This document shows, piece by piece, positions 653-33,136 of a DNA stretch of 64,000 bases (the stretch's first letter is position 1; each line of letters begins with the position of its first letter). This stretch comes from Nitrospira sp. (GTDB lineage Bacteria > Nitrospirota > Thermodesulfovibrionia > UBA6902). Location of the stretch: the NCBI GenBank assembly GCA_016784355.1, contig JADHUV010000009.1, positions 8,746 to 72,745 on the forward strand. The letters run 5' to 3'. Both the position numbers and the translations under genes were made by a program. The notes beneath the pieces are model-generated. The model made no database searches, was not told the DNA's origin, and saw nothing but the letters and a program-made list of their open reading frames with translations.

Positions 653-1399
653 ATGGTATTGTGTATGCACGATATGAAAGAGCGGATTGATCTTGGCAAA
701 TTTACTGAGGATGGGCTTGAGCGGATGTTGAGTTCTGTATCTCTTGTCGAGGATTCCGGTGCCAGAATTGATTGTATTTCTGCTGTTTTTTCCGGCATTT
801 CTTATAATGAATCCACTCTTGCCGGTAGTGCTGACACCCCTGAGATCTTTGTGGTAAATCTTGCTGCTCTTGATTGCTTCACTTTCATTGATTATGTGGA
901 GGCGATGAGAAAATCGGGGGACTTCAGTGAGTTTAAGGAAAGTCTGCTGACGGTGCGCTACAGAGCAGGTGAAATTTCATATCAAAACAGGAAACATTTC
1001 TTTACAGACTGGATAAATTATAATTCTGCTTCAGTAGTAGATTGTACGGAATTGCTCGGGCAGGGCAGGGCGGTCTGTGCAGAAAAAATATTGAATAATA
1101 AAGATGACGGATCGTTGTATTTACAGGGCGTCCCATGTGTTCAGCGGGACGTTGTTTATATTCCATCAAAGGATATAGATAAGACAGTATTGCAGTCCCT
1201 TAGGACAGGAGATTATATAGGGGTTTATTCTGAGCTTCCGGGGCTGGATGTCTCGCATGTCGGGATATTTATAAAGAATGGTGAAGCATCTTATCTGCGC
1301 CATGCATCGCGTAGACAAGGGAAAGTTATAGATGAGGATTTTATGAGCTACATAAAGAACACGCCGGGTATTGTTGTATTGAGGCCCGAGGGTGAGTAA
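653..1399 (+). CDS. DUF1460/AmiA-like NlpC/P60-fold amidase (candidate anhydro-muropeptide amidase)
   Basis: Cys/His pattern of the NlpC/P60 type (AALDCFTFIDYVEA ... DVSHVGIFIK ... LRHAS). The stop overlaps the ampG start, implying translational coupling. Confidence 0.55.
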   Translation: MVLCMHDMKERIDLGKFTEDGLERMLSSVSLVEDSGARIDCISAVFSGISYNESTLAGSADTPEIFVVNLAALDCFTFIDYVEAMRKSGDFSEFKESLLTVRYRAGEISYQNRKHFFTDWINYNSASVVDCTELLGQGRAVCAEKILNNKDDGSLYLQGVPCVQRDVVYIPSKDIDKTVLQSLRTGDYIGVYSELPGLDVSHVGIFIKNGEASYLRHASRRQGKVIDEDFMSYIKNTPGIVVLRPEGE

Positions 1400-2621
1400 T
1401 AAACTTATACAGGTTTTTTTCAGCCGCAGGATGACGGTTGCTTTTGTTATGGGGTTTGCCTCTGGACTTCCGCTGCTGCTTACGATAACCGTGCTGCAGG
1501 CATGGATGCGGGAGGAGGGCGTGGATCTGGGTGTGATCGGGCTTTTTGCGCTAGTCGGTCTTCCTTATACAGTGAAGTTTCTCTGGGCACCATTTCTGGA
1601 CAGATTTACGATCTCTGTCCTTGGGCGTAGAAGAGGTTGGCTCATGCTCTTTCAGCTCCTGCTGGCTCTTGCAATAGCGGGACTGGGCTTTACTGATCCG
1701 GGACAGAGTCCTATGCTTGTGGCATTTGCAGCATTTCTGGTTACTTTTTTCAGTGCATCTCAGGATATCGTGGTTGATGCTTACCGGCGGGAAGATCTGG
1801 CAGATGAGGAGCTTGGCTTAGGTTCGTCACTCTATGTAAATGGATACAGGGTTGGTATGCTCCTTGCCTCAGGCGGGGGGCTTATCATGGCGGATTTTAT
1901 TTCCTTCTCACAGGTTTACCTTATCATGGCCCTGTGTATGATCCCGGGCATTGTCACAACATATCTGACACCCGAACCGGAGGCAGTTCCCGGAACTCCG
2001 CAGAGCATGAAAGAGGCGGTTATTAATCCGCTTGTAGAGTATTTCAGCCGGAGCGGTGCATTATGGATGCTTGCTTTCATCCTTTTTTATAAGATTGGGG
2101 ATACCATGGCAAGTGCCATGACAACGCCGTTTTACCTTGATATAGGGTTTACCAAGACAGAGATCGGAACCGTGGTAAAGCTTTTTGGCTTCTGGGCAAC
2201 GATTGCAGGCGGACTTGCCGGAGGTATGATTATGCTGAGGCTGGGGATAAATCGTTCTTTATGGATTTTCGGTGTCCTGCAGGCTATTTCTACGGCAGGT
2301 TTTGCGGTGCTTGCTTCTGCAGGAGCACATATCTCTTTGCTTGCTGCAGTTATTGCGTTTGAAAACCTTACGGGCGGCATGGGAACTGCCGCTTATGTTG
2401 CATTTATGGCAAGCATAACAAATAAGAAATTTACGGCTACGCAGTATGCACTGTTGAGCAGTCTTATGGGTGTTCCGAGGGTTTTCGCTGCCGCGCCGAC
2501 GGGTTTTTTTGTCAAAGAACTCGGGTGGTTCAGTTTTTTCATTGCCTGCACCCTGATAGCTATTCCCGGAATGCTCCTGCTTTTTAAATTCGCGCCGTGG
2601 AATGGGAAGAAGGCCCGTTAG
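1392..2621 (+). CDS. ampG: AmpG-family MFS muropeptide permease
   Basis: Multi-TM MFS protein with the AmpG-typical N-terminal block GLPYTVKFLWAPFLDR. Neighbours are nagZ-like and amidase-like genes. Confidence 0.8.
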   Translation: MSNKLIQVFFSRRMTVAFVMGFASGLPLLLTITVLQAWMREEGVDLGVIGLFALVGLPYTVKFLWAPFLDRFTISVLGRRRGWLMLFQLLLALAIAGLGFTDPGQSPMLVAFAAFLVTFFSASQDIVVDAYRREDLADEELGLGSSLYVNGYRVGMLLASGGGLIMADFISFSQVYLIMALCMIPGIVTTYLTPEPEAVPGTPQSMKEAVINPLVEYFSRSGALWMLAFILFYKIGDTMASAMTTPFYLDIGFTKTEIGTVVKLFGFWATIAGGLAGGMIMLRLGINRSLWIFGVLQAISTAGFAVLASAGAHISLLAAVIAFENLTGGMGTAAYVAFMASITNKKFTATQYALLSSLMGVPRVFAAAPTGFFVKELGWFSFFIACTLIAIPGMLLLFKFAPWNGKKAR

Positions 2622-2636
2622 GCAGGAGAATGGCCG

Positions 2637-4121
2637 TTACAGGGATATGGGCATATTCCCTTTAAAAGAGATTTCTCCCATAAGGCAGCGCATTGCCGCC
2701 TGCTGGGCCTGCAGCGAAGAATCATAAGCCGCAATCAAGGTATCTGCCTCCATGAAATGTCTCAGTACATAAGGACTTCCAAATGATATGACAATTGATC
2801 TGCGGAAGGAACTCAATGCCAGCTTTATCATATCTGTATTCAGTGAACTGATCCCCGAGCTTCCGTGCCAGGCGGCAATATTTGTAAATATCCCTACAAG
2901 CAGGATTCCGTCGTGATCAATATTTGATGTCTCATCGGTGAACTTAAGAGGGCATCCAAAGAGCTCTTTAAGCGTTGATATGTCAGGGGAGGTGTCATCT
3001 CCGCAGACCATAAGGCTGATTTTATGAGTATCTTTAAGCGGGACGATATCTTTTGAATTATGTATTAGTGTTATTGAGCGCTCATACAGCTCTGTGAATA
3101 TTGCTTTTGCATCAGTTTCTAAGCGGAAAGCTGTCTGGTCAAGAGGTGTTTTTTTGACATACTCATTGATTCTTGCAGCAGCCTTATCGATTTTTGATTC
3201 GGTCAGTGCGCCGCTTGCGACATCGGCTGCGAGTTCTGAGGCGGCGGTGTCAGCATCATCCGGATGTAATATTATGTCGGCCCCGGCATTAATGCACCCC
3301 GTGGCGGCAGATCCGTATTCCCTGAGGGCATGCATATTAAGGGCGTCTGTCAGGATAAGGCCCGGAAAACCGAGTTCCTCTTTAAGAAGTCCCGTTACTA
3401 TTCGCTTTGAGAGGGAGGCAGGCAGGTGGTCAATAGCGGGAATGCTCAGGTGTCCGAGCATAATGCTGCTTATGCCTGCCTGAATCGCGGCCGCAAATGG
3501 GACGAGATCCTGTGCCCTCAGGTCATTTAATGATTTTGATATCAGCGGCAAATCTATGTGTGAGTCTGTGTCTGTATCTCCGTGGCCGGGAAAGTGTTTT
3601 GCACAACTGATGAGTCCGGCACCTTCAATGGCGCTTATATAAATTTTGCCGAGACCTGCCACGGTTGCAGGGTTATCAGAAAATGCCCGTGTGCAAATAA
3701 TAGGGTTGTCAGGGTTGCTATTGATATCAAGTACAGGGATAAGAGGCATGTTTATGCCTGCCTGTGCTGCTTCCTGGGCAACCATAGTAATTGCCTTTTC
3801 CAGTTGTCTTATTTCAGAGATATTATTTAGATCTGTGGCGGCTGCGACGGCCATTTGTGTGGGGAAATGCAGGGCGCCTTCTAAGTGCTGTCCGACCCCA
3901 CGCTCTATGTCGCATGCAATGACAAGGCGTTCCTTTGCCAGGGTCTGAAGTTCCGCAATGCAGGCTGTAACTTCATCCTTTGTGCCGCCGAAGATGATAA
4001 ACCCGCCGATACCTTTTTCTACGAGCAGGGCAAGGCTCTCACGGTATTTGAGTTTCCCGAGTTCATAGCCATTAAGTCTGCTTATGATAAGGCGGTAATA
4101 TTTTTTATCTGCAGGGGGCAT
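2637..4121 (-). CDS. nagZ: Glycoside hydrolase family 3 beta-N-acetylhexosaminidase (NagZ-like, with an extra C-terminal domain)
   Basis: GH3 signature KHFPGHGDTDTDSH and the LILTDALNM block. At 494 aa it is longer than a minimal NagZ. Confidence 0.75.
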   Translation of the reverse strand: MPPADKKYYRLIISRLNGYELGKLKYRESLALLVEKGIGGFIIFGGTKDEVTACIAELQTLAKERLVIACDIERGVGQHLEGALHFPTQMAVAAATDLNNISEIRQLEKAITMVAQEAAQAGINMPLIPVLDINSNPDNPIICTRAFSDNPATVAGLGKIYISAIEGAGLISCAKHFPGHGDTDTDSHIDLPLISKSLNDLRAQDLVPFAAAIQAGISSIMLGHLSIPAIDHLPASLSKRIVTGLLKEELGFPGLILTDALNMHALREYGSAATGCINAGADIILHPDDADTAASELAADVASGALTESKIDKAAARINEYVKKTPLDQTAFRLETDAKAIFTELYERSITLIHNSKDIVPLKDTHKISLMVCGDDTSPDISTLKELFGCPLKFTDETSNIDHDGILLVGIFTNIAAWHGSSGISSLNTDMIKLALSSFRRSIVISFGSPYVLRHFMEADTLIAAYDSSLQAQQAAMRCLMGEISFKGNMPISL

Positions 4122-4150
4122 CTGACATTATACACAACAGGGAAGGAGGC

Positions 4151-5686
4151 TTACAGTTCCGTACTGTTGAGTTTGTATTTTCTTATTTTATAGCCTATCT
4201 GTCGAGGGGTAATACCCAGAAGTCTCGCGGCTTTGGATTGGTTCCATCCGGTTTTTTCAAGGGACTCCAGTATATTGGCTTTTTCGATTTCTTCAACATT
4301 GGCGCTGAGTGAGCCTGAATCGACCAGTATTTGCGAGGGCTTAAGGCTCAGGGAAACCGGAAGTTCCGATGGGGTGATTTTGTCCACGCCAGTCATTATG
4401 ACAAGTCTTTCTATTGTATTTTCAAGTTCTCTGACATTGCCGGGCCAATTATAACTGAGTAGTACTTGAAGAGCATATTTATCCAGGGAAACCATCCTGT
4501 TATTTTCTTTATTGAATTTATCCAGAAAGAATTCAATAAGTACGGGGATATCTTCACCCCTTTCCCGTAAGGGCGGCAGGAATATGGGTATTACGTTTAG
4601 CCTGTAATATAAATCTTCCCTGAATTTCCCCCGTGCTGCCAGATCCTCCAGGTTCCTGCTGGTTGCTGTAATGATTCGCACATCAACCTTTATGGTGTTT
4701 TCGCTGCCTACCCGCTCGAACTCTTTTTCCTGTAGTACGCGCAGTATCTTAGGCTGCAGTGATACAGGCAGGTCGCCTATCTCATCCAGGAAAATGGTTC
4801 CCGCCTCAGCAAGTTCAAACTTGCCTTTTCTTGAGGCTATGGCACCCGTGAATGCCCCTTTTTCATGTCCGAAGAGTTCTGACTCCAGGAGGCCTTCTGG
4901 GATCGAGGCACAATTAAACTTAATAAATGCTCCTTTGCTGCGGGGGCTCATATAGTGTATGCCTTTGGCGATAAGTTCTTTGCCCGTTCCGCTTTCTCCC
5001 CGGAGCAGTACGGTTGCCTTTGACGGCGCGACCCGGTGCACAGCCTCATATACGCCCTGTATTTTGTCTGACATACCGATCATGTTTTCTATGCGGTATT
5101 TACCCTGTAGCTCTCTTTTCAGGTCTTCTTTTTCATGCTCGATTTCTTCATAACTTTCCCATAGTTTGATAAATTGTGCTATAAGTGAAGCCACGATTGT
5201 CAGGACCCGGAGATCATCATCGACATTACCCAGTTTTTCTGAGTATATTCTATCAACGCTCAGAACCCCGAGGACCTCCTCTTTGAGCATTAAAGGTATG
5301 CAAAGGAAAGAGACCCCTGCCTTTGCCGGTCGAGCCCCTGTTTTATTCAGGAAAAGCGGTTCATTGTCAATATTTTGTATGACCATAGGTCTTTTCTTTT
5401 CAAGTACACGTCCAACAATGCCTTCGCCAATCCTGTATTTACCTTTCTCTATGTTCTTTTTTGTCAGGCCGTGAGCAGCTACAATGCGCAGTTCCCCCGA
5501 AAGAGGATCGAGAAGAAACACGCACCCTCTCTGCATTTCAAGAAGCGTTCCAAGGGTGGACATCACAGACTGCAGGTTTTTCTCCAGAGCGAATGAAGTC
5601 GTCAGTACACGGCTTACCTCTAAAATTGCGGTAAGTTCCCTGTTTTTTTGTACGATCAGGTTGGTTTCTTGTTTGATGACTGACAT
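4151..5686 (-). CDS. Sigma-54-dependent transcriptional activator with an N-terminal GAF domain and a C-terminal Fis-type HTH
   Basis: Walker A GESGTGKE, the sigma-54 contact loop ESELFGHEKGAFTGA, an arginine-finger region, and the C-terminal HTH AARLLGITPRQIGYKIRKY. The N-terminal ~170 aa are GAF-like. Confidence 0.9.
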   Translation of the reverse strand: MSVIKQETNLIVQKNRELTAILEVSRVLTTSFALEKNLQSVMSTLGTLLEMQRGCVFLLDPLSGELRIVAAHGLTKKNIEKGKYRIGEGIVGRVLEKKRPMVIQNIDNEPLFLNKTGARPAKAGVSFLCIPLMLKEEVLGVLSVDRIYSEKLGNVDDDLRVLTIVASLIAQFIKLWESYEEIEHEKEDLKRELQGKYRIENMIGMSDKIQGVYEAVHRVAPSKATVLLRGESGTGKELIAKGIHYMSPRSKGAFIKFNCASIPEGLLESELFGHEKGAFTGAIASRKGKFELAEAGTIFLDEIGDLPVSLQPKILRVLQEKEFERVGSENTIKVDVRIITATSRNLEDLAARGKFREDLYYRLNVIPIFLPPLRERGEDIPVLIEFFLDKFNKENNRMVSLDKYALQVLLSYNWPGNVRELENTIERLVIMTGVDKITPSELPVSLSLKPSQILVDSGSLSANVEEIEKANILESLEKTGWNQSKAARLLGITPRQIGYKIRKYKLNSTEL

Positions 5687-6052
5687 AGTAGTATGATGAT
5701 GAGATGGTAATTTTTTATAGTGATTATGGTATTATACACAAGTGTCCCCGAGTATTTCTTATTCAGGTGTGTATGCGATAATTGATATTTCAGTCACCTC
5801 TATCCCTTTTGTCCATGATCGCATCTTTTATCAACGCAGTTTCCTGCAATTAAAGTTGTCAGGGAATGTGCCGTATATATAGCATAGAAATGAAGCTTTA
5901 GTTAGAAGTATTCGGTTGGGGGGCCTTATCCCTTTTATTTTAGTATAAATTTTTTATATAATAAGGATTACTTGTTTTAAATTTCGAGAATCAGTATATA
6001 TCTGATTGTTAAATATATAAAAGAACGAAAAATAATTTCGATAGAGGTATAG

Positions 6053-8443
6053 ATGGCAAAAGGCTGTTGTGATACAGGAAGAGATGAAAGAATAAAGCAG
6101 TATAGCTACAGTGAGTGGGAGATCGATGATCCCAATGTCAGGAAGTTCAGTCCTGAAGATATTCTTTTTACTCCTGAACATATTGTCAAACGCAAAAAGG
6201 GCGTGTCACTTCTGATTGATCCGAAGTCGCCTAACTGGATAAGTATGAACCAGACAGGTGCTGAAATTATCAAGCTGTGTGATGGTAAACATACTATTTC
6301 TGAGATTCAGGATGCGATATGCAAGAAATACGCTGTCAGCAATAAAAAGCAGGTAAAGGAAGAGGTCTCTCAGTTTCTCAGTGCTGCCGGACTGCTTGAA
6401 TTTGTCTCAGATATAAAATTTGAAAGACCGGCATACCCCGGCAGAAGCAAGGTAATAGCTCCCAAAAAACTCGATGAGCTGTGGATGTACTACACCATGG
6501 CATGTAACCTCAAGTGTAAGCACTGTCTGGTGGATGCGGGCAAGGTTTTGCGCAAAGAGCTTAGCACCGAGGAGTTTATGAAGGTGGTGGACGAAGGGGT
6601 CAAGCTTGGAGTTAAGAGGTTTTATATAACCGGCGGTGAGCCCTTTATAAAAGAAGGGATCTTTGATCTTATTAAATACATCACAAAAACAAAGAAGCGG
6701 GAGCTTATAGTTCTTACCAATGCGACCCTCTTTGATGATGACAAGATAGCTAAGCTGGCAAAGCTTGCCGGCCCGAGACTTCTACTTCAGGTGAGTCTCG
6801 ATGGGCACACTGCGGCCATGCATGACGAACTTCGCGGCAAGGGAAGTTTTGATAAGGCAGTAGACGGGATTAAAAAGCTGATCAGTATTGGCATAACACC
6901 GATTATCTCTACGGCGATCAGCAAGCTGAATGAAAAGGACATTTCAAAGACTTCCAAGTATCTCTCAGGGCTTGGCATTCAGGAGCACAATGTGCTTTGG
7001 ATGCATACGAAGGGTCGAGGTGCAAGTAATATAAGTGATCTTTATATACCCTCTGATGATGTTGCAAAGGCAATGAAAAGAATCAAGAGTGCTTATAAAG
7101 AGCAGGAGATGATCCTGGATAATGTAGAGTCGCTGAAAGTCAGGGTCAGGACTAAAAGAGGCAGAAAGAATGACCTCTGCAATAACTGTTATGAAAAGGT
7201 ATGCGTTAATTCCGACGGGAATGTATATCCCTGTGCATCTCTGAACGGAGATAAGGCGTTTAATGCCGGCTCAGTCAGGAAGAAATCCCTTGAGGACATA
7301 TGGCTTAATTCAAAGGTCATGGATACGGGCCGTAAACTCAGCGTACAGGATAAGGAGGAATGCAGTAAGTGCTACCTTGAATATTTCTGCGGCGGAGGAT
7401 GTACAGCTCATAGTTACTATGCAAGTGAAGTGGATACGGGCAAGGGTTCTATAACTGCGGTTGACCCTTACTGCTCAACCTATAAATCACTTTTTGATGA
7501 CATTATATGGGAGCTCGCTTCTGAAGGTGTCAGGACGTCTAATGATAAGACGGGATATACTGTTCCCCTTGTATATAATGCGATGGATACAAAGCTTCCC
7601 GGACATTTTGGCAAGGGTCTTAAGAAGATTGATAAAAACTTTGATGTCGGCTGTTATCACTGCTCATGTGTTTTATCTGTTGATGTTGAGGGCGATGATG
7701 AGATCTGTAAGCCCGAGATTAAAGGGAATGTTACAAAGACAGTGAAAAAGAAATTTTCAGATGCTGCTTATAACCCTGTTGCGGATTACTATTGTCCTAC
7801 CGGTTATGATCCTAAAGATCTTGCTCATATACCTAAAGAGGTAATGGATGTATCTTACGGCTGCGGAAATCCTGCTGCCCTTGCGGATATAGGCGAGGCA
7901 GAGACCATTGTCGACCTTGGTGCGGGTGGTGGCATTGACTGCTTTATAGCTGCAAAAAAACTTGGACCAAAAGGCAAGGTCATTGGTATAGATCTGACTG
8001 AGGAAATGGTTGTTCAGGCTAGTAAGAGCGCTAAGAAGGTTGCAAAGGTTCTGGGCTATGATGTAGTGGAGTTCAGAGCCGGAAACATAATGGAGCTGCC
8101 GGTTGAGGATAACTCTGTTGATTTAGTTATATCGAACTGCGTTATAAATCTCACGGAAGACAAGTGGCAGGCACTGAGAGAGATATATCGTATTCTTAAA
8201 CCAGGCGGCAGGTTCTATATTTCTGATATAGTTTCGGATAAGCCGGTTCCTGGATACCTGAAGCGTGATAAAGAACTCTGGAATGCATGTCTTTCAGGGG
8301 CACTTACAGATAAGAATTTCAAGGCAACGGCAGATGATGCCGGCTTTAGCAAGGTAACACTGACAAACGGGTATCTTTATAAAAAGGTTGAATTTATCAA
8401 TTTTTACTCGGTAACATTAAAAGGTATCAAACCTAAAAAGTAA
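6053..8443 (+). CDS. Tri-domain fusion: PqqD/RRE-like domain, radical SAM with a SPASM auxiliary-cluster domain, and a C-terminal ArsM/AS3MT-type SAM methyltransferase
   Basis: PqqD-like segment ISMNQTGAEIIKLCDGKHTISEIQDAICKKY. rSAM CxxxCxxC in CNLKCKHC, plus GGEPF. SPASM Cys block CSKCYLEYFCGGGCTAHSY. Methyltransferase motif I VDLGAGGGID, with YGCGNP, SNCVINL and LWNACLSGAL. SD AGAGG upstream of the ATG. Confidence 0.85.
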   Translation: MAKGCCDTGRDERIKQYSYSEWEIDDPNVRKFSPEDILFTPEHIVKRKKGVSLLIDPKSPNWISMNQTGAEIIKLCDGKHTISEIQDAICKKYAVSNKKQVKEEVSQFLSAAGLLEFVSDIKFERPAYPGRSKVIAPKKLDELWMYYTMACNLKCKHCLVDAGKVLRKELSTEEFMKVVDEGVKLGVKRFYITGGEPFIKEGIFDLIKYITKTKKRELIVLTNATLFDDDKIAKLAKLAGPRLLLQVSLDGHTAAMHDELRGKGSFDKAVDGIKKLISIGITPIISTAISKLNEKDISKTSKYLSGLGIQEHNVLWMHTKGRGASNISDLYIPSDDVAKAMKRIKSAYKEQEMILDNVESLKVRVRTKRGRKNDLCNNCYEKVCVNSDGNVYPCASLNGDKAFNAGSVRKKSLEDIWLNSKVMDTGRKLSVQDKEECSKCYLEYFCGGGCTAHSYYASEVDTGKGSITAVDPYCSTYKSLFDDIIWELASEGVRTSNDKTGYTVPLVYNAMDTKLPGHFGKGLKKIDKNFDVGCYHCSCVLSVDVEGDDEICKPEIKGNVTKTVKKKFSDAAYNPVADYYCPTGYDPKDLAHIPKEVMDVSYGCGNPAALADIGEAETIVDLGAGGGIDCFIAAKKLGPKGKVIGIDLTEEMVVQASKSAKKVAKVLGYDVVEFRAGNIMELPVEDNSVDLVISNCVINLTEDKWQALREIYRILKPGGRFYISDIVSDKPVPGYLKRDKELWNACLSGALTDKNFKATADDAGFSKVTLTNGYLYKKVEFINFYSVTLKGIKPKK

Positions 8444-8507
8444 GTTGCGGATATAAGTCCTGAGGGTAATCCCAGGGCAATGGTTCGCAAGAAAAGAGGT
8501 CGGATTT

Positions 8508-9992
8508 ATGAAAGTTACATTAGTCAATGCGCAGGTACTGGATGGCAACAATGTTGTTCCGCCATTGGGGCTTCTGTATGTGGCCGGCTCGCTGGAAGCT
8601 GCCGGACATGAGGTACAGATCTTTGATGCGGATCCCGAACACGAAACAACCATGCTTCAGCAGATCAAGGACTTTAATCCGGGACTGATAGGCATAAGCT
8701 TTCTGACGGTAGCATATGAACGTGCGGAGGGTCTTTGTAAGGCTCTGAAAAAAGTTCTTCCGGATGTAATGTATTGCGCAGGAGGCGTGCATGCCACGGT
8801 CAAGCCTGAAGAAACATTGAAGGCGTTTGACCTTGATTTGATAATTATGGGTGAAGGCGAGCACACCATGGTAGATTTATGTAACAGGCTCTCAAAGAAT
8901 GAGAGTATTGAGGATGCCCCTGGATTGCTTTATCAAAAAGACGGCGCGATTGTCAGGACTGAACCAAGAGAGCTTATTCAGGATCTTGACTCCATACCAT
9001 TTCCTGCCAGACACCTTATTGATATGACCCCGTATCTGAAGCCCCCGGGAATTATCAGGGGTTATGCTGATAAGAATCAGACAACAATAGTGACCAGTCG
9101 AGGCTGTCCTTTTAAGTGTATTTATTGCGGAAGTCATAATATATTCGGCAGAAAGACCAGGCGGCGCTCATATCAGAACGTTGTTGATGAGATTGAACAT
9201 CTTGCTAAAAATTTCGGTATCAGAGGTATATATTATTGTGATGACACCTTTACCCTTAGTTCCAGGTGGGTTAAGGAATACTGTAATGAATTGAAGAAGA
9301 GAAAACTTGATATTAAGTGGGGCTGTCAGTCGAGGGTTGATCAGACAGACAGGGCACTTATGATAGAGATGAAGTCCTCAGGTCTCGTGCAGCTTGATTT
9401 CGGTGTTGAGAGTGGTTCTGAAAAGATACTTAAGGTACTTGGTAAGGGCGGAGCAGGTGACAGGACATCCCAGATCAAGGAATCCTTCAAGCTTTGCAAG
9501 GAACTTGATATTAGGACTCTTGCTACGTTTATCATTGGTAATCCGACAGAGACAAAGGAGGATATCGATGAGAGCTTTGCGGTAGCAAAAGAAATACAGG
9601 CGGATTATACCGCATTTTATTTCCTGACTCCTTATCCGGGTACGGACATTTATGATCAGGCTATTGCAAATGGATGGCTTGATCCGAACCTGCCTTTCTC
9701 TGAGATATGGGCACACAGGCAGCCGGAACTGCCTCTGATGGCTATTACATTTAGTCAGGAAGATTTAAGGGATATCAGACGTAATCTGCAGAATCATTTC
9801 TTCAGAAAAAATTATCTCGTAAGATCAGGGAATATTAGTTTTTATTCCATCCTGTCTACGATATTTTTCAGGAATCCGGGAATATTCCTGACGGCCTTTG
9901 GGAAATTTCTCCGGACCCGTAGGATGGATTACATAGTTGAGACTTTGAATGCTGAGTACTGGAGAATTAAAAAGTATGAGGGTGCAGGTTAA
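8508..9992 (+). CDS. B12-binding-domain radical SAM protein (class B rSAM)
   Basis: N-terminal Rossmann-like B12-binding region (PPLGLLYVAGSLEAAGHEV). rSAM cluster motif SRGCPFKCIYCGS. Lies 64 nt downstream of the fusion gene on the same strand. Confidence 0.85.
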   Translation: MKVTLVNAQVLDGNNVVPPLGLLYVAGSLEAAGHEVQIFDADPEHETTMLQQIKDFNPGLIGISFLTVAYERAEGLCKALKKVLPDVMYCAGGVHATVKPEETLKAFDLDLIIMGEGEHTMVDLCNRLSKNESIEDAPGLLYQKDGAIVRTEPRELIQDLDSIPFPARHLIDMTPYLKPPGIIRGYADKNQTTIVTSRGCPFKCIYCGSHNIFGRKTRRRSYQNVVDEIEHLAKNFGIRGIYYCDDTFTLSSRWVKEYCNELKKRKLDIKWGCQSRVDQTDRALMIEMKSSGLVQLDFGVESGSEKILKVLGKGGAGDRTSQIKESFKLCKELDIRTLATFIIGNPTETKEDIDESFAVAKEIQADYTAFYFLTPYPGTDIYDQAIANGWLDPNLPFSEIWAHRQPELPLMAITFSQEDLRDIRRNLQNHFFRKNYLVRSGNISFYSILSTIFFRNPGIFLTAFGKFLRTRRMDYIVETLNAEYWRIKKYEGAG

Positions 9993-10015
9993 GGCCTGAG
10001 CTTAAACAGATAGAA

Positions 10016-10048
10016 GCCGGGGTGTGTTTTTACCGCCCCGGTTTTTTT
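10016..10048 (+). terminator. Rho-independent terminator closing the two-gene rSAM operon
   Basis: Stem CCGGGG / CCCCGG (10017-22 / 10036-41) followed by T7 (10042-48). Confidence 0.65.
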
Positions 10049-10069: not shown

Positions 10070-11449
10070 TTATCGATGGGGCGGGTTTTTTTCGTTCAGA
10101 GCTCCCGCCAATGAATGCGCAAACTCTGAAAGACTTTCATCCCGTGCGCCGAAAATAACATAGGTGTCATGTAGTGCGGCCATATGCAGAATTTCATTTC
10201 TATTTGCAAGGTCAACTGTCTTATTATTTACCCTAATTCCTTCCGCCAGACTCCGGCTTGATATCTCTTTGCTGACAGTTCCCCCAGCGTAATATATCGG
10301 CAGCAGTATGAGCCTGTCGGATATCCTGAGATTAGTAGAAAAAGTTTTTATATACTCATCCTTCATCATCTTCGTAGGTGCATAACCATGGGGCTGGAAT
10401 ATATAGCATATATTGTCCCTGATAGCCGAAGCAGCGCGCATCATGGCCTCTATCTTGTGAGGGTTATGCGCATAATCATCAATGACAAGATGAACTCCGT
10501 CATTTAAGTGGATATCAAAGCGTCTCTCTATCCCCAGAAACTCAGGCAGCACATCGGCTATATCGGCGGCGGGGATTCCGATTTCACTCAGAAGGGCAAT
10601 GCATGACAGTGCGTTATATACATTATATTTTCCCGGGATGGAAAGTGAAAAAGTAGTCTTGTTAATGTTGAACTCAGAGCCAAATGCCATAAAATGAATA
10701 TTCTCTGCTCTGTAGTCAGAGGGCGCTTCGATGGAAAATCCTACAGCATCACTTCTTCGGATTCTGTCCAGGTATACATCATCATAATTGAGCAGGATTT
10801 TTCCCGTGGTATTGTCCATCAGGGTCTGAAACATAGAAGATGTGTGATTAATGGAATGGTGATCGAGGTCCAGATTTAGAATGATTGTATGCTCAGGCTT
10901 GTAATGTATAATACTCCCATCAGATTCGCAGGCCTCGATGACCAGTGTCTCTGAAACTCCGGAAAGTGAGTTGCCTGCACATGAGGGAGATCGGAATTGA
11001 CTTACCCTTCCGCCACCGAGGAAATTAGGAGACAGTCCCAGTCTTTCCATTAAAAAAGCCAGCATGCCTGATACAGTAGATTTACCGCTGGTTCCGGCCA
11101 CTGCAACAGTCCTGAAGGATCGGGTGATATCCGCCAGTAATTCCGGGCGCGTCATAAGGGGTATCCCTATTAATTTTGCCTTGAGTATCTCGGGGTGGTC
11201 AGCCTCGATAGCAGTACTAAACACTGCAAGATCAAGTGACTCATTAATTCCACTGCCGTCTTGTGGAAAGAGTGAAATGCCTTGAGAGGGGAAGAAAGAT
11301 TTCAGGGGGTGCTCGCCGTTATCAAAGGCCCTGTCCGAGCCGGTAATAATATGGCCCTTTTTTGCCATAAATCCGGCCAGTGCGGAGACGCCGCTGCCTC
11401 CTATGCCGGAAAAGAATATTCTGGAGTTCTTCTTAATCATATGAAGCAT
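10070..11449 (-). CDS. Mur ligase family protein (MurC/Mpl-type)
   Basis: N-terminal Rossmann motif FSGIGGSGVSALAGFMAKKGHIITGSD, ATP-binding loop AVAGTSGKST, and a C-terminal Mur ligase domain. It stands alone rather than in a dcw cluster. Confidence 0.7.
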   Translation of the reverse strand: MLHMIKKNSRIFFSGIGGSGVSALAGFMAKKGHIITGSDRAFDNGEHPLKSFFPSQGISLFPQDGSGINESLDLAVFSTAIEADHPEILKAKLIGIPLMTRPELLADITRSFRTVAVAGTSGKSTVSGMLAFLMERLGLSPNFLGGGRVSQFRSPSCAGNSLSGVSETLVIEACESDGSIIHYKPEHTIILNLDLDHHSINHTSSMFQTLMDNTTGKILLNYDDVYLDRIRRSDAVGFSIEAPSDYRAENIHFMAFGSEFNINKTTFSLSIPGKYNVYNALSCIALLSEIGIPAADIADVLPEFLGIERRFDIHLNDGVHLVIDDYAHNPHKIEAMMRAASAIRDNICYIFQPHGYAPTKMMKDEYIKTFSTNLRISDRLILLPIYYAGGTVSKEISSRSLAEGIRVNNKTVDLANRNEILHMAALHDTYVIFGARDESLSEFAHSLAGALNEKNPPHR

Positions 11450-11668: not shown

Positions 11669-12217
11669 ATGAATGAAGCAGATAATTTTTTTTCAAAGAT
11701 GCGAGGAGGAGCCAAGAGTCCTCCTGTAGTCAGTCTTTCAGAGATATTCCTGTCGTGGGTAGGGGCATTTGCGGGGATATCAGCGGTGGCCTTCATGAAT
11801 TATAATGTGTTTAATGAGTCTGACTTTGTAATGATAATCGGCTCATTCGGTGCGTCTGCCGTCTTGATATATGGAGCGATCAAGAGCCCTCTGGCACAGC
11901 CGAGAAATCTGATCGGTGGACATGTGATATCAGCATTGATTGGAGTAGCCTCTTATCAGATGCTGGGTAGTACTATGTGGCTTGCCTCCGCTGTCGCAGT
12001 GGCTACCTCCATAGCGGTGATGCATGCGACAAAAACCCTTCATCCTCCCGGAGGGGCAACGGCATTAATAGCCGTTATAGGAAGTGAAAAAATACATGCC
12101 CTGGGATATATGTATGCCCTTGTGCCGGTTGGGGCAGGCGCGATTATAATGCTTTTGGTAGCGCTCATAGTTAACAATTGTGCTAAATCCAGGAAGTACC
12201 CTGAGTTCTGGCTGTAA
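11669..12217 (+). CDS. HPP-family integral membrane protein
   Basis: Eponymous motif TLHPPGGATALIAV, with 4-5 TM helices. Confidence 0.8.
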   Translation: MNEADNFFSKMRGGAKSPPVVSLSEIFLSWVGAFAGISAVAFMNYNVFNESDFVMIIGSFGASAVLIYGAIKSPLAQPRNLIGGHVISALIGVASYQMLGSTMWLASAVAVATSIAVMHATKTLHPPGGATALIAVIGSEKIHALGYMYALVPVGAGAIIMLLVALIVNNCAKSRKYPEFWL

Positions 12218-12261: not shown

Positions 12262-12738
12262 CTATGAAACAGTTATTTTAACGGGTTCACTGATCCAGGT
12301 CCCGTGCAGATTACAGTCTTCTATTGCTTCTATAGTTGCTGATTTCTCAAGTTTTATTTTGAAGGTTGCTGAGGATGCTGTAGTTCCGCCCGCCTTGTAT
12401 TCAGTTCGCGCAATCTCGACTCCGTCTGAAAGCAGCAGTATCATTGTGATCCAATGCTTTGACGTAGTCGGATGCTCGCTCATAAAGCCTACATTAACCG
12501 TCACCTCAAACCATTCTTCTGCCTTGATGGATAATGGACTTTTGATACCCGGGACATGCTTTTTTTCCATGCCGCTGGGGTTGCCATGATTAGTCAGGCT
12601 TTTATAACTTTCTCTGTATGCTCCTGATGGTACTCCGCTGAAAACTGCCTCTGCCTTGTTAGCCGTCAGCAACGCTGCGGTGGTTGCGATCCCCTTTAAA
12701 AAAGTTCTTCGTTCCATTTGTTCTCCTTTTAATAACAT
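12262..12738 (-). CDS. Tat-exported superoxide-reductase-like protein (desulfoferrodoxin centre II fold)
   Basis: Twin-arginine signal MERRTFLKGIATTAALL. All SOR iron-ligand blocks are present: EKKHVPGI, EHPTTSKHWITMI, CNLHGTW. The true start may be the internal Met (MERR...). Confidence 0.7.
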   Translation of the reverse strand: MLLKGEQMERRTFLKGIATTAALLTANKAEAVFSGVPSGAYRESYKSLTNHGNPSGMEKKHVPGIKSPLSIKAEEWFEVTVNVGFMSEHPTTSKHWITMILLLSDGVEIARTEYKAGGTTASSATFKIKLEKSATIEAIEDCNLHGTWISEPVKITVS

Positions 12739-13012: not shown

Positions 13013-13030
13013 TGGGCATGTAAGTTGCAT
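13013..13030 (+). promoter_or_regulatory. Candidate sigma-54 (-24/-12) promoter
   Basis: TGGGCAT-GTAAG-TTGCAT. GG at 13015-16 and GC at 13027-28 give exact GG-N10-GC spacing with flanking GGCA and TTGCA. It lies ~85 nt upstream of the ATG at 13112. Confidence 0.5.
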
Positions 13031-13111: not shown

Positions 13112-13450
13112 ATGGTAGATATTAATAACAAGCTGGAATTATGCAGTATTTGCCGGGATGAGTACACATCAATTAATAGCGAGGCTGCACCTGGAGTGAT
13201 ACTCCATGTATGTCAGAAATGCCTCGACCTTGCCAGGGACAATTTTATATGGATCTGCCTCGGATGCGGGCAGGTACACTTTAGATCGAAAAAACAGGTT
13301 ATTGCTGCAACAACAGATTTTGAGCTGAAGCGGGCTTATATGCTTTGCGAAGACCAGACCGTTATACAGGGCATTGATATTTGCATCAGTTGTGATCCTG
13401 AAGGAATTATGGAGTATGTAGAGTCCAATAGATCTGCAGTTGAGTGTTAA
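13112..13450 (+). CDS. Small cysteine-rich protein with four CxxC pairs (double zinc-ribbon-like), function unknown
   Basis: Strong SD AGGAGG 7 nt before the ATG. CxxC pairs CSIC, CQKC, CLGC, CISC. Hairpins follow downstream. Confidence 0.6.
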   Translation: MVDINNKLELCSICRDEYTSINSEAAPGVILHVCQKCLDLARDNFIWICLGCGQVHFRSKKQVIAATTDFELKRAYMLCEDQTVIQGIDICISCDPEGIMEYVESNRSAVEC

Positions 13451-13566: not shown

Positions 13567-15975
13567 TTAATTTTCTGCGGCAAGTTGTGCATTAATTTTT
13601 CGTAGTAGTTGTTTGGGTCCATCAGCTTCAGGGGCCAATGTAATAAGTTTTTCGGCATATGGTCTGGCAGGCAGCCACTTTTTCTCCTGCATATAAAAAA
13701 TTACCACAGCCTGGACAATGCCTGGATCGGTGGTATCAGTCTTATGAGCCAAAAGCATTTCTGAAAGTGCTTCGGTATTTCTGCCTGTATGTCGTAGTGC
13801 CAAAGCATAATTATACCGGATACGGGCGCGATCAGGTTGTAATTCAGTGGCCCGTTTCAGAGATGCTACTGCCTCAGACAGGCGTTTTGTCTCCGAATAT
13901 AATAGGCCGAGAGAGTAGTGGGCCTCCCCGTTGTCAGGCTCAAACTCAAGGATTGCCCCGTAGGTATGCTCAGCATCCTTAGAGCGGTCCTCTGAATTGT
14001 AGAGATTAGCAAGATTGAAATAAGCAGGCGTATAGTCATTGGCAAGTCTGATCGCGGTTTTATATGAAACTTCCGCACTTTCAAGCTGTCCGAGGTTTTC
14101 ATGCAGTATTCCGAGATTGAGGTGTGCTTCCGGGCGGTCTGCTATGGTCTCCTGTGATTCAATATATTGATCAAGGGCAATTTTAAAAGTGGAAAACACA
14201 CTTTCACTGAAAAACTCACGGGGTATCTCTGTAAGGGCACGGGCTACTTCGGTTCTTACCGCTCTTATTTCATCTTTAAGCAGGGGCACGAGCAGGGAGT
14301 ATTTTTTCTCAAGCCCCTCAGGATCCGCGTCTTTAGGTATAAGGATGGATAAACCTTTTACCGCCTCATAGCGCACCAGAGGATCCTCGGCATTAAGCGA
14401 AAGGGCGGTTATATCAATGGAGGCCTTGCCTCGGAAGCGTGAAAGTATATTCAGTGCAGTAGCCCTGATAATAGCCGGTCTGTTATCGTCTGTAATAATT
14501 TTAAATAAATCTGCCCTGACCCCGGGGTTTCCTTTTTGAGCAGCTGCAAATGTCTCTGTCACGTTGTCTTCCGAACGGGATTTTGCATAAGGATACCATA
14601 CATTCATCTGCGTAGCAGCCCATTGCGCAGTTTTATCTTTATGACATCTGTTGCAGGGGTTCGGAATATCCAGTTTGAGTGTGAGATCAGGTCGCGGGAT
14701 CTGAAACTTATGATCACGTCTCGGATCAACGATCATGTATGTAGTCTCCGGCATATGGCACTCAACACACTGTGCGCCTTTAGATCCCTCCTTGTGGAAA
14801 TGATGCATGGGTGAATCATAGTCCAGTTGCTGTACGCCTGTAATCTCTCTTTCGGGTGATGAAGCATGGCATTCTATGCAAAGGTCATTGCCTGGACTCT
14901 TCAGATCTGCGCTATGAGGGTCATGACAGTCCGTACATCTCACGCCCTTCTGATATTTTTTGGACTGGAGAAATGAACCATATACGTAGACCTCATCCCG
15001 TATTTGTCCATCTGGATAATAAAAAGGCTCAGTCAGAACCTGCGGCACATAATGGTCCATAAAGGGTTTGCTGAAAGTATATTCCTCCTGCAGGCCATTA
15101 CGCAGTGAATGGCATCGGGCACAGCCCTCTATTTGAACTCGGGAGGAAATGGCTGACAGGTTAATCGTAAGGCCGGTTTGATTATACGAGTGTTTAGTAT
15201 TCCTGTCAGCAGAACCTGCCCATTCTATATGGTTTGAACCCGGGCCGTGGCAGGCCTGGCAGCCGACATCTATGTCTGACCATGTTGTGCTGAAGGTGTC
15301 GCCTAGAAGATCGTAATTTTTTCGAATATTTGTTGAATGGCATTCAGCACACATATAGTTCCAGTTGAAAAAACGTTTTGTCCAGTGAAATGAATGAGCA
15401 GATGTTATTTTTTCATCAGGATGCAGATGGATCCACTTCTGACCGCCCATATTCCCGGGATGATTATTCCAGGCGATATCCAGTATTTGCATTCGTCCGT
15501 CCGGGAACTTGATCATGTACTGCTGAAGGGGTTCTACGCCGAATACATAACTGATCTCGTAATCGTGCAGCTTGCCGTCAGGTCCATCTGTTCTGGCAAA
15601 GAATTTTTTGTTTTTTTTATAGAATTTTGAGGTTATTCCCTGATGTGTAAATACGGAATCGTTGAAATCTCCCTTTACGGTGTCCTTGTATGCGATGTCC
15701 ATGGCAAGGTCATGATGCGAATTTCTCCATTTTCTGAATTGAGCAGCATGGCACCTGGAGCAAACCCTGTCACGGACATAGCCGGCTTTGGCTGTAAAGG
15801 TTGCCTGGGATGTCTGTTTTTGTAGCTGTTCAGTCTGTGCTGGTTTATCAATGTCAGGGCTGCAGCCTTGCAGGGATGCACCCATTATAAGTATGGTAAT
15901 TAAGAAATAGGATATAAAGTGATTTGACAGTTTGTTCGCCATGGCTTTACATTTTAGCACATTTAAAGAATGCAA
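13567..15975 (-). CDS. Octahaem c-type cytochrome fused to C-terminal HEAT-like and TPR repeats (probable lipoprotein)
   Basis: Eight CxxCH motifs (CSRCH, CAECH, CQACH, CARCH, CTDCH, CIECH, CVECH, CNRCH). Signal peptide with LQGC. The C-terminal ~300 aa are TPR-like repeats. Confidence 0.85.
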   Translation of the reverse strand: MHSLNVLKCKAMANKLSNHFISYFLITILIMGASLQGCSPDIDKPAQTEQLQKQTSQATFTAKAGYVRDRVCSRCHAAQFRKWRNSHHDLAMDIAYKDTVKGDFNDSVFTHQGITSKFYKKNKKFFARTDGPDGKLHDYEISYVFGVEPLQQYMIKFPDGRMQILDIAWNNHPGNMGGQKWIHLHPDEKITSAHSFHWTKRFFNWNYMCAECHSTNIRKNYDLLGDTFSTTWSDIDVGCQACHGPGSNHIEWAGSADRNTKHSYNQTGLTINLSAISSRVQIEGCARCHSLRNGLQEEYTFSKPFMDHYVPQVLTEPFYYPDGQIRDEVYVYGSFLQSKKYQKGVRCTDCHDPHSADLKSPGNDLCIECHASSPEREITGVQQLDYDSPMHHFHKEGSKGAQCVECHMPETTYMIVDPRRDHKFQIPRPDLTLKLDIPNPCNRCHKDKTAQWAATQMNVWYPYAKSRSEDNVTETFAAAQKGNPGVRADLFKIITDDNRPAIIRATALNILSRFRGKASIDITALSLNAEDPLVRYEAVKGLSILIPKDADPEGLEKKYSLLVPLLKDEIRAVRTEVARALTEIPREFFSESVFSTFKIALDQYIESQETIADRPEAHLNLGILHENLGQLESAEVSYKTAIRLANDYTPAYFNLANLYNSEDRSKDAEHTYGAILEFEPDNGEAHYSLGLLYSETKRLSEAVASLKRATELQPDRARIRYNYALALRHTGRNTEALSEMLLAHKTDTTDPGIVQAVVIFYMQEKKWLPARPYAEKLITLAPEADGPKQLLRKINAQLAAEN

Positions 15976-27439: not shown

Positions 27440-28041
27440 AATCTTATGTAGTTGCCCTCTCAGGTGCGAGCGGAGCTGTACTGGGAGTACGGCTTGTAAG
27501 GGAGCTTCTGGCCTCTGGATGCAAGGTATATATCTGTCTTTCCAGGCAGGCCTTTTTTATTCTAAATACCGAGGCTGGAATTGATTGGGCCGGTTCTTCA
27601 ACTGCTGAGAGCGAAGAGAAAATAAGGGCGCATTTTGGTTCGGATAATATCTATTATTTCAGTGACACTGATCTGGCAGCTCCTTTTTCAAGCGGGTCCT
27701 TTATTACAGGCGGGATGTTCGTAGTTCCATGTTCAATGAAGACCCTTTCCGGAATTGCTCATGGTTACGCCAGTAACTTAATTGAAAGGGCGGCGGATGT
27801 GACTATTAAGGAGGGACGCAAACTCATCATTGCCCCTCGTGAGATGCCGTTTAGTGCCATACATCTGGAAAATATGCTTAAGCTTGCTCGGATTGGAGTC
27901 ACTGTTGCCCCGCCTGTTCCGGCCTTTTATCAGGGTCCTGAGCATATTGAAGACATCATTAGTTTTATAGTGGGAAAGCTGCTTGACAGTGCAGGAGTAA
28001 AAAATAATTTGTTTAAGCGCTGGAATCAGGAAAAGCGTTGA
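27436..28041 (+). CDS. ubiX: Flavin prenyltransferase UbiX
   Basis: N-terminal SGASGAVLGVRL, PCSMKTLSGIAHG and the RERKLIL-type block (KEGRKLIIAPREMP). Confidence 0.85.
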   Translation: MKSYVVALSGASGAVLGVRLVRELLASGCKVYICLSRQAFFILNTEAGIDWAGSSTAESEEKIRAHFGSDNIYYFSDTDLAAPFSSGSFITGGMFVVPCSMKTLSGIAHGYASNLIERAADVTIKEGRKLIIAPREMPFSAIHLENMLKLARIGVTVAPPVPAFYQGPEHIEDIISFIVGKLLDSAGVKNNLFKRWNQEKR

Positions 28042-29107
28042 TGGTGCTGCCAGGTCCGTCCTGGTGTGAGTCATAAATCTCCCTGAACGTCTCTGAAAGT
28101 TCCGTAAATGCTGAAAGTATATCCGGATCAAAGTGTTTCGGCATTGTTCTGCCGTCACCCTCAATCAGGATTTTACAAACGTCTTCATGGGTTATTGCTG
28201 ATTTGTACGGTCTCATGCATCTCAGTGCATCATATTGATCGCATATAATAACAATTCTTCCTTCCAGCGGGATATCACTGCCTTTAAGTCCATTAGGGTA
28301 TCCGCTACCGTCCCACCTTTCGTGATGCTGCAGCGCTATGGTGGATGCCATTTGAAGGATAGGGTGAGGCGAGTCGGCCAGGATCTTGTGGCCTATGGTT
28401 GTATGAGATTTCATTATATCAAACTCTTCTCTGGTAAAGGTCCCGGGCTTTAAGAGTATATTGTCCGGTATTCCTATCTTTCCTATATCGTGCAGGGTGC
28501 TTGCATAGGTAATGGCATCAATGAAATCAACGTTTTTATTCAGGTACTCGGATATCTTGTTTGCATAGAGCCCAATTCTGGATATGTGGGAGCCCGTCTC
28601 AACGTCTCTGAACTCTGCTACCGAGGTCAGTCTTCTTATTACTTCTCTGCTGAGATTGAAGATTTCTCTTGTCTGTTTTCTGACGGTCTCTTCAAGGCGC
28701 TGTTTATAGTCCTGCTCTACCTGCAGGAGTTCGCAGTATCTGCGGGCCTTTTCCACGGTGTCTATCAGATATTCAGGATTGTAGGGCTTTGTGATAAAAT
28801 CAAACGCCCCCTTTTTGATAGCTGCGATTGCCACATCAAGTTCGGCATATCCGGTCATGAGTATAATCGGCATTGCCGGTAAAATGGCATGAACCTTTTC
28901 AAGCAGTTGAATGCCGGACATCCCCGGCATCTTTATATCAGTAAGAATAAGCCTGGTATCAAGAGTGAGAGCCTTTTCCACCGCATCCGGCCCGTTGTTG
29001 CAGGGAATTACATTATAACCGTACTCTCTTAGCAGTGCCGCCGCCGTCTCCAGTACATAGGGGTCATCATCTACGACTATGATAGTGCCTTCAATCTGAA
29101 CGGTCAT
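28013..29107 (-). CDS. Response regulator with an HD-GYP phosphodiesterase output domain
   Basis: REC domain (IVVDDDP ... LTDIKMPGMSG ... KP). HD-GYP motifs HDIGK and HHERWDGSGYP. The 3' end overlaps the convergent ubiX by 29 nt. Confidence 0.85.
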   Translation of the reverse strand: MTVQIEGTIIVVDDDPYVLETAAALLREYGYNVIPCNNGPDAVEKALTLDTRLILTDIKMPGMSGIQLLEKVHAILPAMPIILMTGYAELDVAIAAIKKGAFDFITKPYNPEYLIDTVEKARRYCELLQVEQDYKQRLEETVRKQTREIFNLSREVIRRLTSVAEFRDVETGSHISRIGLYANKISEYLNKNVDFIDAITYASTLHDIGKIGIPDNILLKPGTFTREEFDIMKSHTTIGHKILADSPHPILQMASTIALQHHERWDGSGYPNGLKGSDIPLEGRIVIICDQYDALRCMRPYKSAITHEDVCKILIEGDGRTMPKHFDPDILSAFTELSETFREIYDSHQDGPGSTINAFPDSSA

Positions 29108-33076: not shown

Positions 33077-33136
33077 GTTTTTAAATATCCTTTATCGACC
33101 CCTGTTAACACAAATAAGGCAAAAGTCTGTTGAATA

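Follow-up and report, generated by a model that had tools for sequence, protein, structure and literature searches.

A radical-SAM/SPASM enzyme fused to an ArsM-type methyltransferase, with a cobalamin radical-SAM partner, in uncultured Nitrospirota

To our knowledge, only two radical S-adenosylmethionine (SAM) routes to carbon-arsenic bonds have been described, the ArsS route to arsenosugars and the ArsL route to arsinothricin, each of them working with a separate ArsM methyltransferase. The methylation of phosphinothricin at phosphorus by PhpK is the phosphorus counterpart of the arsenic methylation in arsinothricin. A further group of radical-SAM/SPASM enzymes, the maturases SkfB, AlbA, CteB, SuiB and StsB, carry an N-terminal PqqD-type domain, the recognition element (RRE) for ribosomally synthesized and post-translationally modified peptides (RiPPs), and this domain ordinarily signals a peptide substrate. 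In ArsL itself, a C-terminal RCCLKC tail binds As(III) and is needed for formation of the C-As bond (bioRxiv 10.1101/2024.02.01.577332). Here we consider a two-gene locus of Nitrospira sp. (Nitrospirota, Thermodesulfovibrionia, UBA6902) in which a radical-SAM/SPASM module and an ArsM-type methyltransferase are parts of one polypeptide, followed by a cobalamin (B12)-binding radical-SAM protein. The locus lies in a window of 64,000 nucleotides, the whole stretch of DNA analysed (GenBank assembly GCA_016784355.1, contig JADHUV010000009.1, positions 8,746 to 72,745 of the forward strand), and coordinates given below are those of the window unless another locus is named. By analogy with ArsS/ArsM and ArsL/ArsM, we tentatively read the two genes, as a serious possibility rather than a probability, as a self-contained, sigma-70-transcribed operon that would convert a soft metalloid bound to thiols into a methylated, carbon-bonded small molecule by an undescribed route combining radical-SAM and ArsM chemistry. 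Arsenite or methylarsenite is the most likely predicted substrate.

The first gene (6053-8443, + strand) encodes a protein of 796 amino acids, in which the open reading frame (ORF) map and the Pfam and NCBIfam matches place, in order, an N-terminal CC tail, a PqqD/RRE domain, a radical-SAM core, a SPASM domain, an H-C-x-C tail and an ArsM-type methyltransferase. All four Pfam matches score above their gathering thresholds: PqqD (PF05402) at residues 54-110 (E 6.6e-12, 46 bits against a cut-off of 23.4), Radical_SAM (PF04055) at 147-302 (E 8.5e-24), SPASM (PF13186) at 376-441 (E 3e-9) and Methyltransf_31 at 615-758 (E 2.7e-33). Among the NCBIfam models the "arsenite methyltransferase" PRK11873 ranks first, followed by ArsM variants and by StsB, WgkB, MftC and AlbA. 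The top radical-SAM matches are StsB, NirJ2, WgkB, AhbD and MftC, and the peptide-maturase scores fall far under their cut-offs (StsB, 164 against 625; AlbA, 106 against 850). The AlphaFold2 model of the whole protein has a predicted local distance difference test score (pLDDT) of 87.6 and a predicted template modelling score (pTM) of 0.81.

A search of 5.8 billion proteins returned more than 120 clusters (at 90% identity) of homologues of about 800 amino acids, 63-80% identical to the fusion over its full length; the close homologues are all from uncultured Nitrospirota/Thermodesulfovibrionia and bear only generic database names. A scan of one genome per GTDB species located 56 fusion loci, every one of them in a metagenome-assembled genome. 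In 115 full-length homologues (780-830 amino acids) the domains are unbroken, with no stop or frameshift between them, and since these sequences come from independent assemblies an assembly artefact is ruled out: the fusion is a genuine single polypeptide. In this set 22 of the 25 cysteine columns are invariant, with C630 at 99%, C534 at 96% and only C90 variable (47%); the invariant residues include C5/C6, C76, the CxxxCxxC motif, nine SPASM cysteines, C537, C539 and C552, and four positions of the ArsM-type domain. A preliminary description, made by reading the DNA without database searches, had placed three modules in this single ORF, namely a PqqD/RRE-like N-terminus, a CxxxCxxC radical-SAM core with a SPASM cysteine block, and an ArsM/AS3MT-like methyltransferase, and had judged the fusion to be undescribed. 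The profile searches and the 115 homologues agree with this division. No specific NCBIfam or Pfam family covers either the fusion or the stand-alone module, and full-text literature searches returned nothing on the fusion, on DUF5714 (a domain of some relatives, discussed below) or on the arsenosugar glycosyltransferases.

The methyltransferase domain (7721-8440, + strand) was assigned by PRK11873, by HMMER alignment to CmArsM and by Foldseek, and its alignments indicate a complete ArsM-type class I SAM methyltransferase with cysteine at all four predicted As(III)-binding positions. C604, C696 and C746 align by column with CmArsM C72, C174 and C224. C581 lies 23 residues upstream of C604, where the equivalent of CmArsM C44 is expected, in a segment beyond the local alignment; thus the earlier claim that every As(III)-binding cysteine is represented holds by column for three of the positions and by location for the fourth. 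All four are invariant in the 115 homologues. A search of the PDB with the C-terminal part of the protein gave strong matches only to ArsM/AS3MT structures (5evj, 4fr0 and 8xt7; E 1e-33 to 1e-29), and Foldseek superposed the domain on ArsM 4fr0 with a root-mean-square deviation of 2.6 A over 230 columns at 35% identity. The PRK11873 match reaches 240.4 bits against a cut-off of 263 and covers model positions 38-234 of 272, the fusion junction standing where the model has its N-terminal part. Four of the domain's ten closest stand-alone relatives pass this cut-off, and the other six score 209-242. CC tails are found on many bacterial ArsM proteins, and 47 of the 115 close homologues of the fusion have an extra Cys-rich C-terminal tail (for example ...GCCACG or ...GCGCSCG); the protein of the window ends without such a tail, in ...KPKK (8420-8443).

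The N-terminal half begins with a tail of 36 residues (6053-6160, + strand), recognized in the homologue alignment as MAKGCC...R..R..Y....W. Its vicinal pair C5/C6 is invariant in 115 of 115 homologues, and the tail is missing from every relative below 50% identity, making it specific to the clade of the window; AlphaFold2 modelled it at low confidence (pLDDT 42-70). The PqqD/RRE-like winged-helix domain follows at residues ~37-118 (6161-6406, + strand). In addition to the PF05402 match, the AlphaFold2 model has the RRE topology of three strands and three helices, Foldseek matches the model to the RRE-bearing maturases SkfB, SuiB and CteB, and a PDB sequence search matches the N-terminal half to SkfB and CteB. 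W62 of this domain is invariant even among distant relatives and its beta3 strand (PNW) is conserved across phyla. What this domain docks may be a carrier, or the tail of the protein itself, and not a leader peptide.

The radical-SAM core (6473-7042, + strand; PF04055) contains the motif C151-x3-C155-x2-C158, whose three cysteines are invariant across 45 diverse sequences. The SPASM domain (7166-7486, + strand; PF13186) holds the full auxiliary-cluster set (C376, C379, C384, C394, C437, C440, C446, C450 and C474), which is invariant in the close family. One element had been misread: the GCYHCSC segment, taken at first for a Cys-rich linker between the radical-SAM and methyltransferase modules, is actually the conserved C-terminal tail of the radical-SAM/SPASM module, because stand-alone relatives end exactly at [YF]-H-C-x-C. 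Reverse-order relatives (see below) terminate at the same motif. In the window this Cys/His tail, VGCYHCSCVL...CKPE, spans 7640-7720 (+ strand) and includes C534, H536, C537, C539 and C552; across the 45 diverse sequences C539 never varies and H536 is kept in at least 90%.

The second gene (8508-9992, + strand) begins 64 nucleotides after the fusion, as the preliminary description had noted, and encodes a protein of 494 amino acids with an N-terminal B12-binding domain (PF02310, E 4.6e-26) and a radical-SAM domain (PF04055, E 2.2e-21) bearing the motif C200-x3-C204-x2-C207. In 49 of 55 loci it is the next gene downstream of the fusion, at a median distance of 40 nucleotides, the other loci being contig ends; the two genes co-evolve, the partner being 60-80% identical within the lineages that carry the fusion. 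This partner is specific to the clade of the window. It resembles the class B radical-SAM methyltransferases (PhpK/Sden_1168, BchE and HpnJ) in its N-terminal B12-binding domain and radical-SAM core but, unlike them, reaches no NCBIfam family cut-off, the best scores being BchE (204 against 481) and HpnJ (197 against 578). Against the RiPP C-methyltransferases it scores 161 bits (ApyD) and 94 bits (TIGR03975), both below the cut-offs, and its closest PDB chains are only remote (AprD4, 104 bits). A B12 radical-SAM gene near a 45%-identical fusion (L078) was considered as an orthologue of the partner and rejected, being only 27% identical. The unit closes at the intrinsic terminator that had been seen at 10016-10048 (+ strand), where folding gives a hairpin of -24.3 kcal/mol (z = -5.5) followed by U7; the convergent ligase gene has its 3' end at the same element.

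How does this pair compare with the described systems? It resembles ArsS (TIGR04167) plus ArsM in that a radical-SAM enzyme with a Cys-rich C-terminal element is paired with an ArsM-type methyltransferase, and relatives of the module sit between or beside TIGR04282/TIGR04283 genes, exactly the place expected of ArsS. The radical-SAM part of the fusion, however, belongs to the RRE and SPASM maturase lineage, ArsS not being among its 25 best NCBIfam matches; it is covalently joined to the methyltransferase; and in the clade of the window a B12 radical-SAM partner replaces the two transferases. The arsinothricin system likewise combines a radical-SAM enzyme with an ArsM methyltransferase, and candidate counterparts of the RCCLKC tail are present here in the MAKGCC N-terminal tail and the H-C-x-C tail. 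ArsL also has a B12-binding-like fold, and the partner in the window matches the ArsL model (NF040542) weakly, with 74 bits against 450; the partner ends in ...RIKKYEGAG, without an RCCLKC tail, and the ArsM domain of the fusion scores 202 against the cut-off of 500 for the arsinothricin ArsM. We found no evidence that the fusion pair performs the 3-amino-3-carboxypropyl transfer of ArsL and ArsM. With the maturases SkfB, AlbA, CteB, SuiB and StsB the fusion shares the N-terminal PqqD/RRE, CxxxCxxC and a full SPASM domain with two auxiliary-cluster motifs, and these are the best sequence and fold matches of residues 40-480; it differs from them in its extra His/Cys tail and fused ArsM-type domain, and no gene for a precursor peptide, a protease or a transporter accompanies it. 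The fusion and its partner are therefore new with respect to ArsS/ArsM and ArsL/ArsM in their RRE and SPASM radical-SAM lineage, their covalent fusion and their B12 radical-SAM partner.

Additional information comes from more distant relatives. An exhaustive HMMER search over 1.84 billion representatives, followed by domain scans, yielded relatives at 28-47% identity, members of a large superfamily annotated no further than "methyltransferase domain-containing protein". Fusions in the same order, 33-45% identical, occur in Desulfobacterota, Elusimicrobiota and other phyla. Some fusions of ~1000-1080 amino acids add a C-terminal DUF5714, an extension that matches the "metal-binding double selenoprotein MbdU" at 143-159 bits, below its cut-off (P0146, residues 800-1072), and one fusion (P0139) carries a TIGR04283 domain. 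In three others (P0133, P0136 and P0138) the order is reversed, the ArsM-like domain preceding radical SAM/SPASM. That the module has been fused to ArsM-type domains in either order is strong evidence, from sequence comparison, that the two would be catalysts of one pathway.

We scanned metagenomes with an alignment of the module only and identified neighbours by tblastn in the resulting 80 loci. In 60 of the 80 the next domain after the module is of ArsM type, and near the module there is a PHO4/PiT-type transporter in 21, TIGR04282 and/or TIGR04283 in 16, and DUF5714 in six. The B12 gene was found only near modules 59-75% identical to that of the window, in five of six such loci; at the sixth, the contig stops within the ArsM-type domain. 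Among the 30 loci with enough DNA, 10 have PHO4 no more than 1.5 kb downstream, and Thermoanaerobaculia are rich in the PiT-linked sub-family (787 proteins at E <= 1e-60). In four loci of the close family, PhoU_div-PHO4 directly follows the B12 gene. Clustering of ORFs with Pfam assignment added DedA/VTT (11 loci), pyridine-nucleotide disulfide oxidoreductase (10), DUF547 (8), thioredoxin (6), DUF3179 (6) and, directly upstream of the module in four loci, an ArsR-type HTH_5 regulator. At one locus a ModA-like binding protein lies upstream and an ArsP_1-family permease two genes downstream.

The transferase genes are arranged in several ways around these relatives. In one operon (L075) the module stands between TIGR04283 (234.6 bits against a cut-off of 182) and TIGR04282 (194.7 against 134). 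At the nearest stand-alone relatives (L077 and L089, 44-47% identity) it is followed by TIGR04282 (201 against 134) and a glycerophosphodiester phosphodiesterase (GDPD), and elsewhere (L010) a TIGR04282+TIGR04283 fusion gene follows a long fusion. A C_GCAxxG_C_C family protein is encoded directly upstream of the TIGR04283 gene in L075 (6764-7192 of that locus), and Cys/Sec-rich redox or metal-binding proteins cluster with relatives of the module.

The preliminary description had left the choice between a RiPP-like pathway and a new route to a metalloid or thiol product. The context of the relatives and the fusions in two orders favour the metalloid or small-molecule side and weaken the RiPP side. 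We favour metalloid handling over peptide maturation because the As(III)-ligand cysteines are kept and vicinal-Cys and His/Cys tails are present, and because the neighbours of the relatives include oxyanion uptake, thiol redox, ArsR-type sensing and "arsenosugar" transferases. The published precedent of the ArsL tail, the fusions and this context lead us to propose a logic like that of ArsS and ArsL. In such a scheme the Cys tails would capture As(III), as the RCCLKC tail does in ArsL, and the ArsM domain would then methylate it by SN2 attack on SAM. The trivalent methyl-arsenical could pass to the radical-SAM site, where 5'-deoxyadenosyl-radical chemistry would form the C-As bond, either by direct adenosylation as in ArsS or by coupling to a co-substrate. 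Finally, the cobalamin radical-SAM partner might add a further methyl group, or rearrange the carbon skeleton, at an unactivated centre; in the clade of the window it would take the place held by glycosyltransferases in the relatives.

Several observations weigh against this proposal. The methyltransferase domain scores 23 bits below the curated ArsM cut-off, and the well-supported PqqD/RRE domain has its usual association with a peptide substrate. For the B12 partner no close relative is informative. Neither the window nor most close-family loci contain TIGR04282/TIGR04283 transferases, a PiT transporter or any ars gene; in the close family TIGR04282 is confined to L004 and L055, of one sub-lineage, where it lies 6.5 kb upstream (201.6 bits against 134). 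Within 8 kb of the nearest stand-alone relatives there is no ArsM gene, and the "arsenosugar" labels of TIGR04282 and TIGR04283 were themselves derived from context. Many distant fusions (P0124-P0173; L076, L010, L090-L161) have lost SPASM cysteines, with GGGDIEH in place of CGGGC, and the DUF5714 forms lack the first ArsM cysteine (IVNP for CCP). Given these losses the chemistry of the sub-families may differ; they are probably not isofunctional, and the distant ones may not share the chemistry of the window's protein.

The genes around the close family bear on one alternative, post-translational modification of a RiPP or protein whose gene lies elsewhere. The RRE would bind the peptide or protein, the SPASM enzyme would cross-link or epimerise it, and the methyltransferase and B12 enzyme would add S-, N-, O- or C-methyl groups. 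The PqqD/RRE match (E 6.6e-12) agrees with this, as do the maturases SkfB, SuiB, CteB, StsB and AlbA as closest structures and NCBIfam relatives of the N-terminal half, and B12 radical-SAM enzymes do include RiPP C-methyltransferases, although the partner's scores with ApyD (161 bits) and TIGR03975 (94 bits) are sub-threshold. When all ORFs of the 55 close-family loci were clustered, the B12 radical-SAM gene was the only constant neighbour of the fusion, the others being variable and of housekeeping type. Such flanks, with a chromosomal and vertically inherited distribution, would fit modification of a housekeeping protein; on the other hand, no protease, exporter or immunity gene is consistently present across the 55 loci.

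A precursor peptide was sought as well. In the window, neither the spacer nor the flanks of the pair contain a plausible small ORF, and when ORFs of 12-90 amino acids within 1.5 kb of the pair were clustered for 52 loci, each conserved short ORF proved to overlap a real gene in another frame. A hidden precursor was rejected on this basis, leaving intact the initial impression that none is visible; across loci the B12 radical-SAM gene co-occurs with the fusion (49 of 55) and a small ORF does not. Furthermore, the four As(III)-ligand cysteines would have no reason to be kept in a peptide methylase, the context of the relatives is one of metalloids, redox and transport rather than peptides, and the conservation of the RRE beta3 strand (PNW) across phyla is unlike that of RREs that track variable leaders. 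On balance we consider peptide or protein modification unlikely.

About as improbable, in our judgement, is a small-molecule pathway that involves no metalloid, leading to a cofactor, a lipid head-group or a phospho-sugar/compatible solute, with the ArsM-like domain acting as a general thiol or carbon methyltransferase and its cysteines in redox or metal (Zn, Fe-S) roles. The sub-threshold ArsM score is compatible with this, and the partner is most like BchE, HpnJ and the B12 radical-SAM enzymes of lipids. The CofC-like and GpgS-like transferases, GDPD, GDE_C, MGH1-type glycosidases and phosphate-type transporters next to relatives could serve phospho-glycoside metabolism, and in one close sub-lineage, that of L004 and L055, a DPM1-like GT2 gene is directly upstream of the fusion. 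Against a pathway free of metalloids stand the strict conservation of the four ArsM cysteines and the vicinal Cys tails, the recurrence of ArsR-type regulators, thioredoxin and disulfide reductases beside relatives, and the position of ArsM as the closest family by both sequence and structure. Pure arsenic detoxification, in which the ArsM domain would volatilise arsenic and the radical-SAM parts would supply reducing power or repair with no new C-As chemistry, is suggested by the ArsM-type domain and by the groundwater or subsurface origin of many of the source metagenomes, but it is very improbable, as no ars gene (arsR, acr3, arsB or arsC) was found in the 64-kb window and methylation would not call for two strictly coupled radical-SAM catalysts whose SAM-cleaving clusters are intact.

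Divergent to the fusion, across a spacer of 366 bp with 31% G+C (5687-6052), lies a gene for an activator with GAF, sigma-54 AAA+ and HTH_8 domains (4151-5686, - strand; Pfam GAF, Sigma54_activat and HTH_8). The NifA model TIGR01817 matches it with 574.1 bits against a cut-off of 528.85; there are no nif genes among the annotated ORFs of the window, and the label is probably an over-call of this model for GAF/sigma-54 activators in Nitrospirota. The domains, orientation and AT-rich spacer are as the preliminary description gave them. Its inclusion of the regulator in the system fares less well: the regulator is a facultative neighbour, divergent to the fusion in 16 of the 46 loci with enough upstream DNA, and whether it belongs to the unit is doubtful. 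A -24/-12 promoter was sought in 5687-6052 without success (no match to TGGCACG-N4-TTGCW at <=3 mismatches, and no GG-N10-GC), and a conserved GG-N10-GC is absent across 16 aligned related spacers. Sigma-54 control of the operon was rejected on these absences, a sigma-70-like motif being conserved instead. A consensus scan points to TTGTCA-18-TAGCAT (5856-5885, + strand), ~170 nucleotides 5' of the start codon, as a candidate sigma-70-type promoter, and relatives keep TTGTGA-N18-TATAAT at a similar distance upstream. The 6-7-6 inverted repeat AATCAG-TATATAT-CTGATT noted earlier does exist at 5989-6007, but it is not significant: an equivalent repeat occurs in 66% of shuffled spacers, which is chance level, and it is not conserved in relatives, and we rejected it as an operator. 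No Rfam match at E <= 1, and thus no riboswitch or other known RNA, was found in the 5' region.

The best sigma-54-like motif near the regulator, GGGCATGTAAGTTGCA, has two mismatches and is located at 13014-13029 (+ strand), ~98 nucleotides 5' of an ORF of 112 amino acids (13112-13450) that has no Pfam or NCBIfam match and recurs in five related loci; this motif and ORF could be the true target of the GAF/sigma-54 activator. The regulator and two-gene cassette sit inside a peptidoglycan-recycling set (653-4121 and 10070-11449; also 715-8069 of locus L006), with an AmiA-like amidase, an AmpG-like MFS transporter and a GH3 NagZ-like hydrolase on one flank and a MurC/Mpl-like ligase on the far side; AnmK and a MurQ-like SIS protein are further upstream on the longer contig. 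The cassette looks like an insertion into a peptidoglycan-recycling cluster. In the close family, 13-20 loci share a block of M50 peptidase, DUF2062, ThiL, Lon and nucleotidyltransferase genes, whose side and orientation are not fixed. We considered whether this block is part of the system and judged it to be lineage synteny, as its genes are of housekeeping type and their side varies.

The remainder of the window is of housekeeping character. At 13567-15975 (- strand) it encodes a protein of 802 amino acids with multihaem c-type cytochrome motifs and C-terminal TPR repeats, adjoining a TAT-signal desulfoferrodoxin-like protein (12262-12738) and an HPP-family membrane protein (11669-12217). 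Three consecutive signalling genes occupy 28013-35548 (- strand), for an HD-type response regulator, a multi-PAS hybrid histidine kinase of 1322 amino acids with an N-terminal REC domain, and a hybrid kinase of 803 amino acids. The sole Rfam match in the window is one tRNA gene (59739-59821, - strand; 57.6 bits), just downstream of the seryl-tRNA synthetase gene (59873-61156).

Going beyond the carbon-bonded product proposed above, we think it possible, if rather doubtful, that in anaerobic bacteria of the subsurface the pair makes a natural product of a new class, an organo-arsenical or other organo-metalloid compound, with an RRE and SPASM enzyme re-tooled to form a carbon-metalloid bond on a thiol-tethered substrate. 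Given the retained RRE, the metalloid chemistry might even take place on a peptide or protein carrier. If the proposal is right, the superfamily in Thermoanaerobaculia, Elusimicrobiota and Desulfobacterota would represent a second, ArsS-independent route to arsenosugar-like compounds, and known biological arsenic chemistry would be widened, possibly to antimony, selenium or tellurium too. It would also show a RiPP-type recognition domain at work outside peptide maturation, and the genes would serve as a marker of organo-arsenical synthesis in anoxic soils and groundwater, in which arsenic speciation bears on toxicity.

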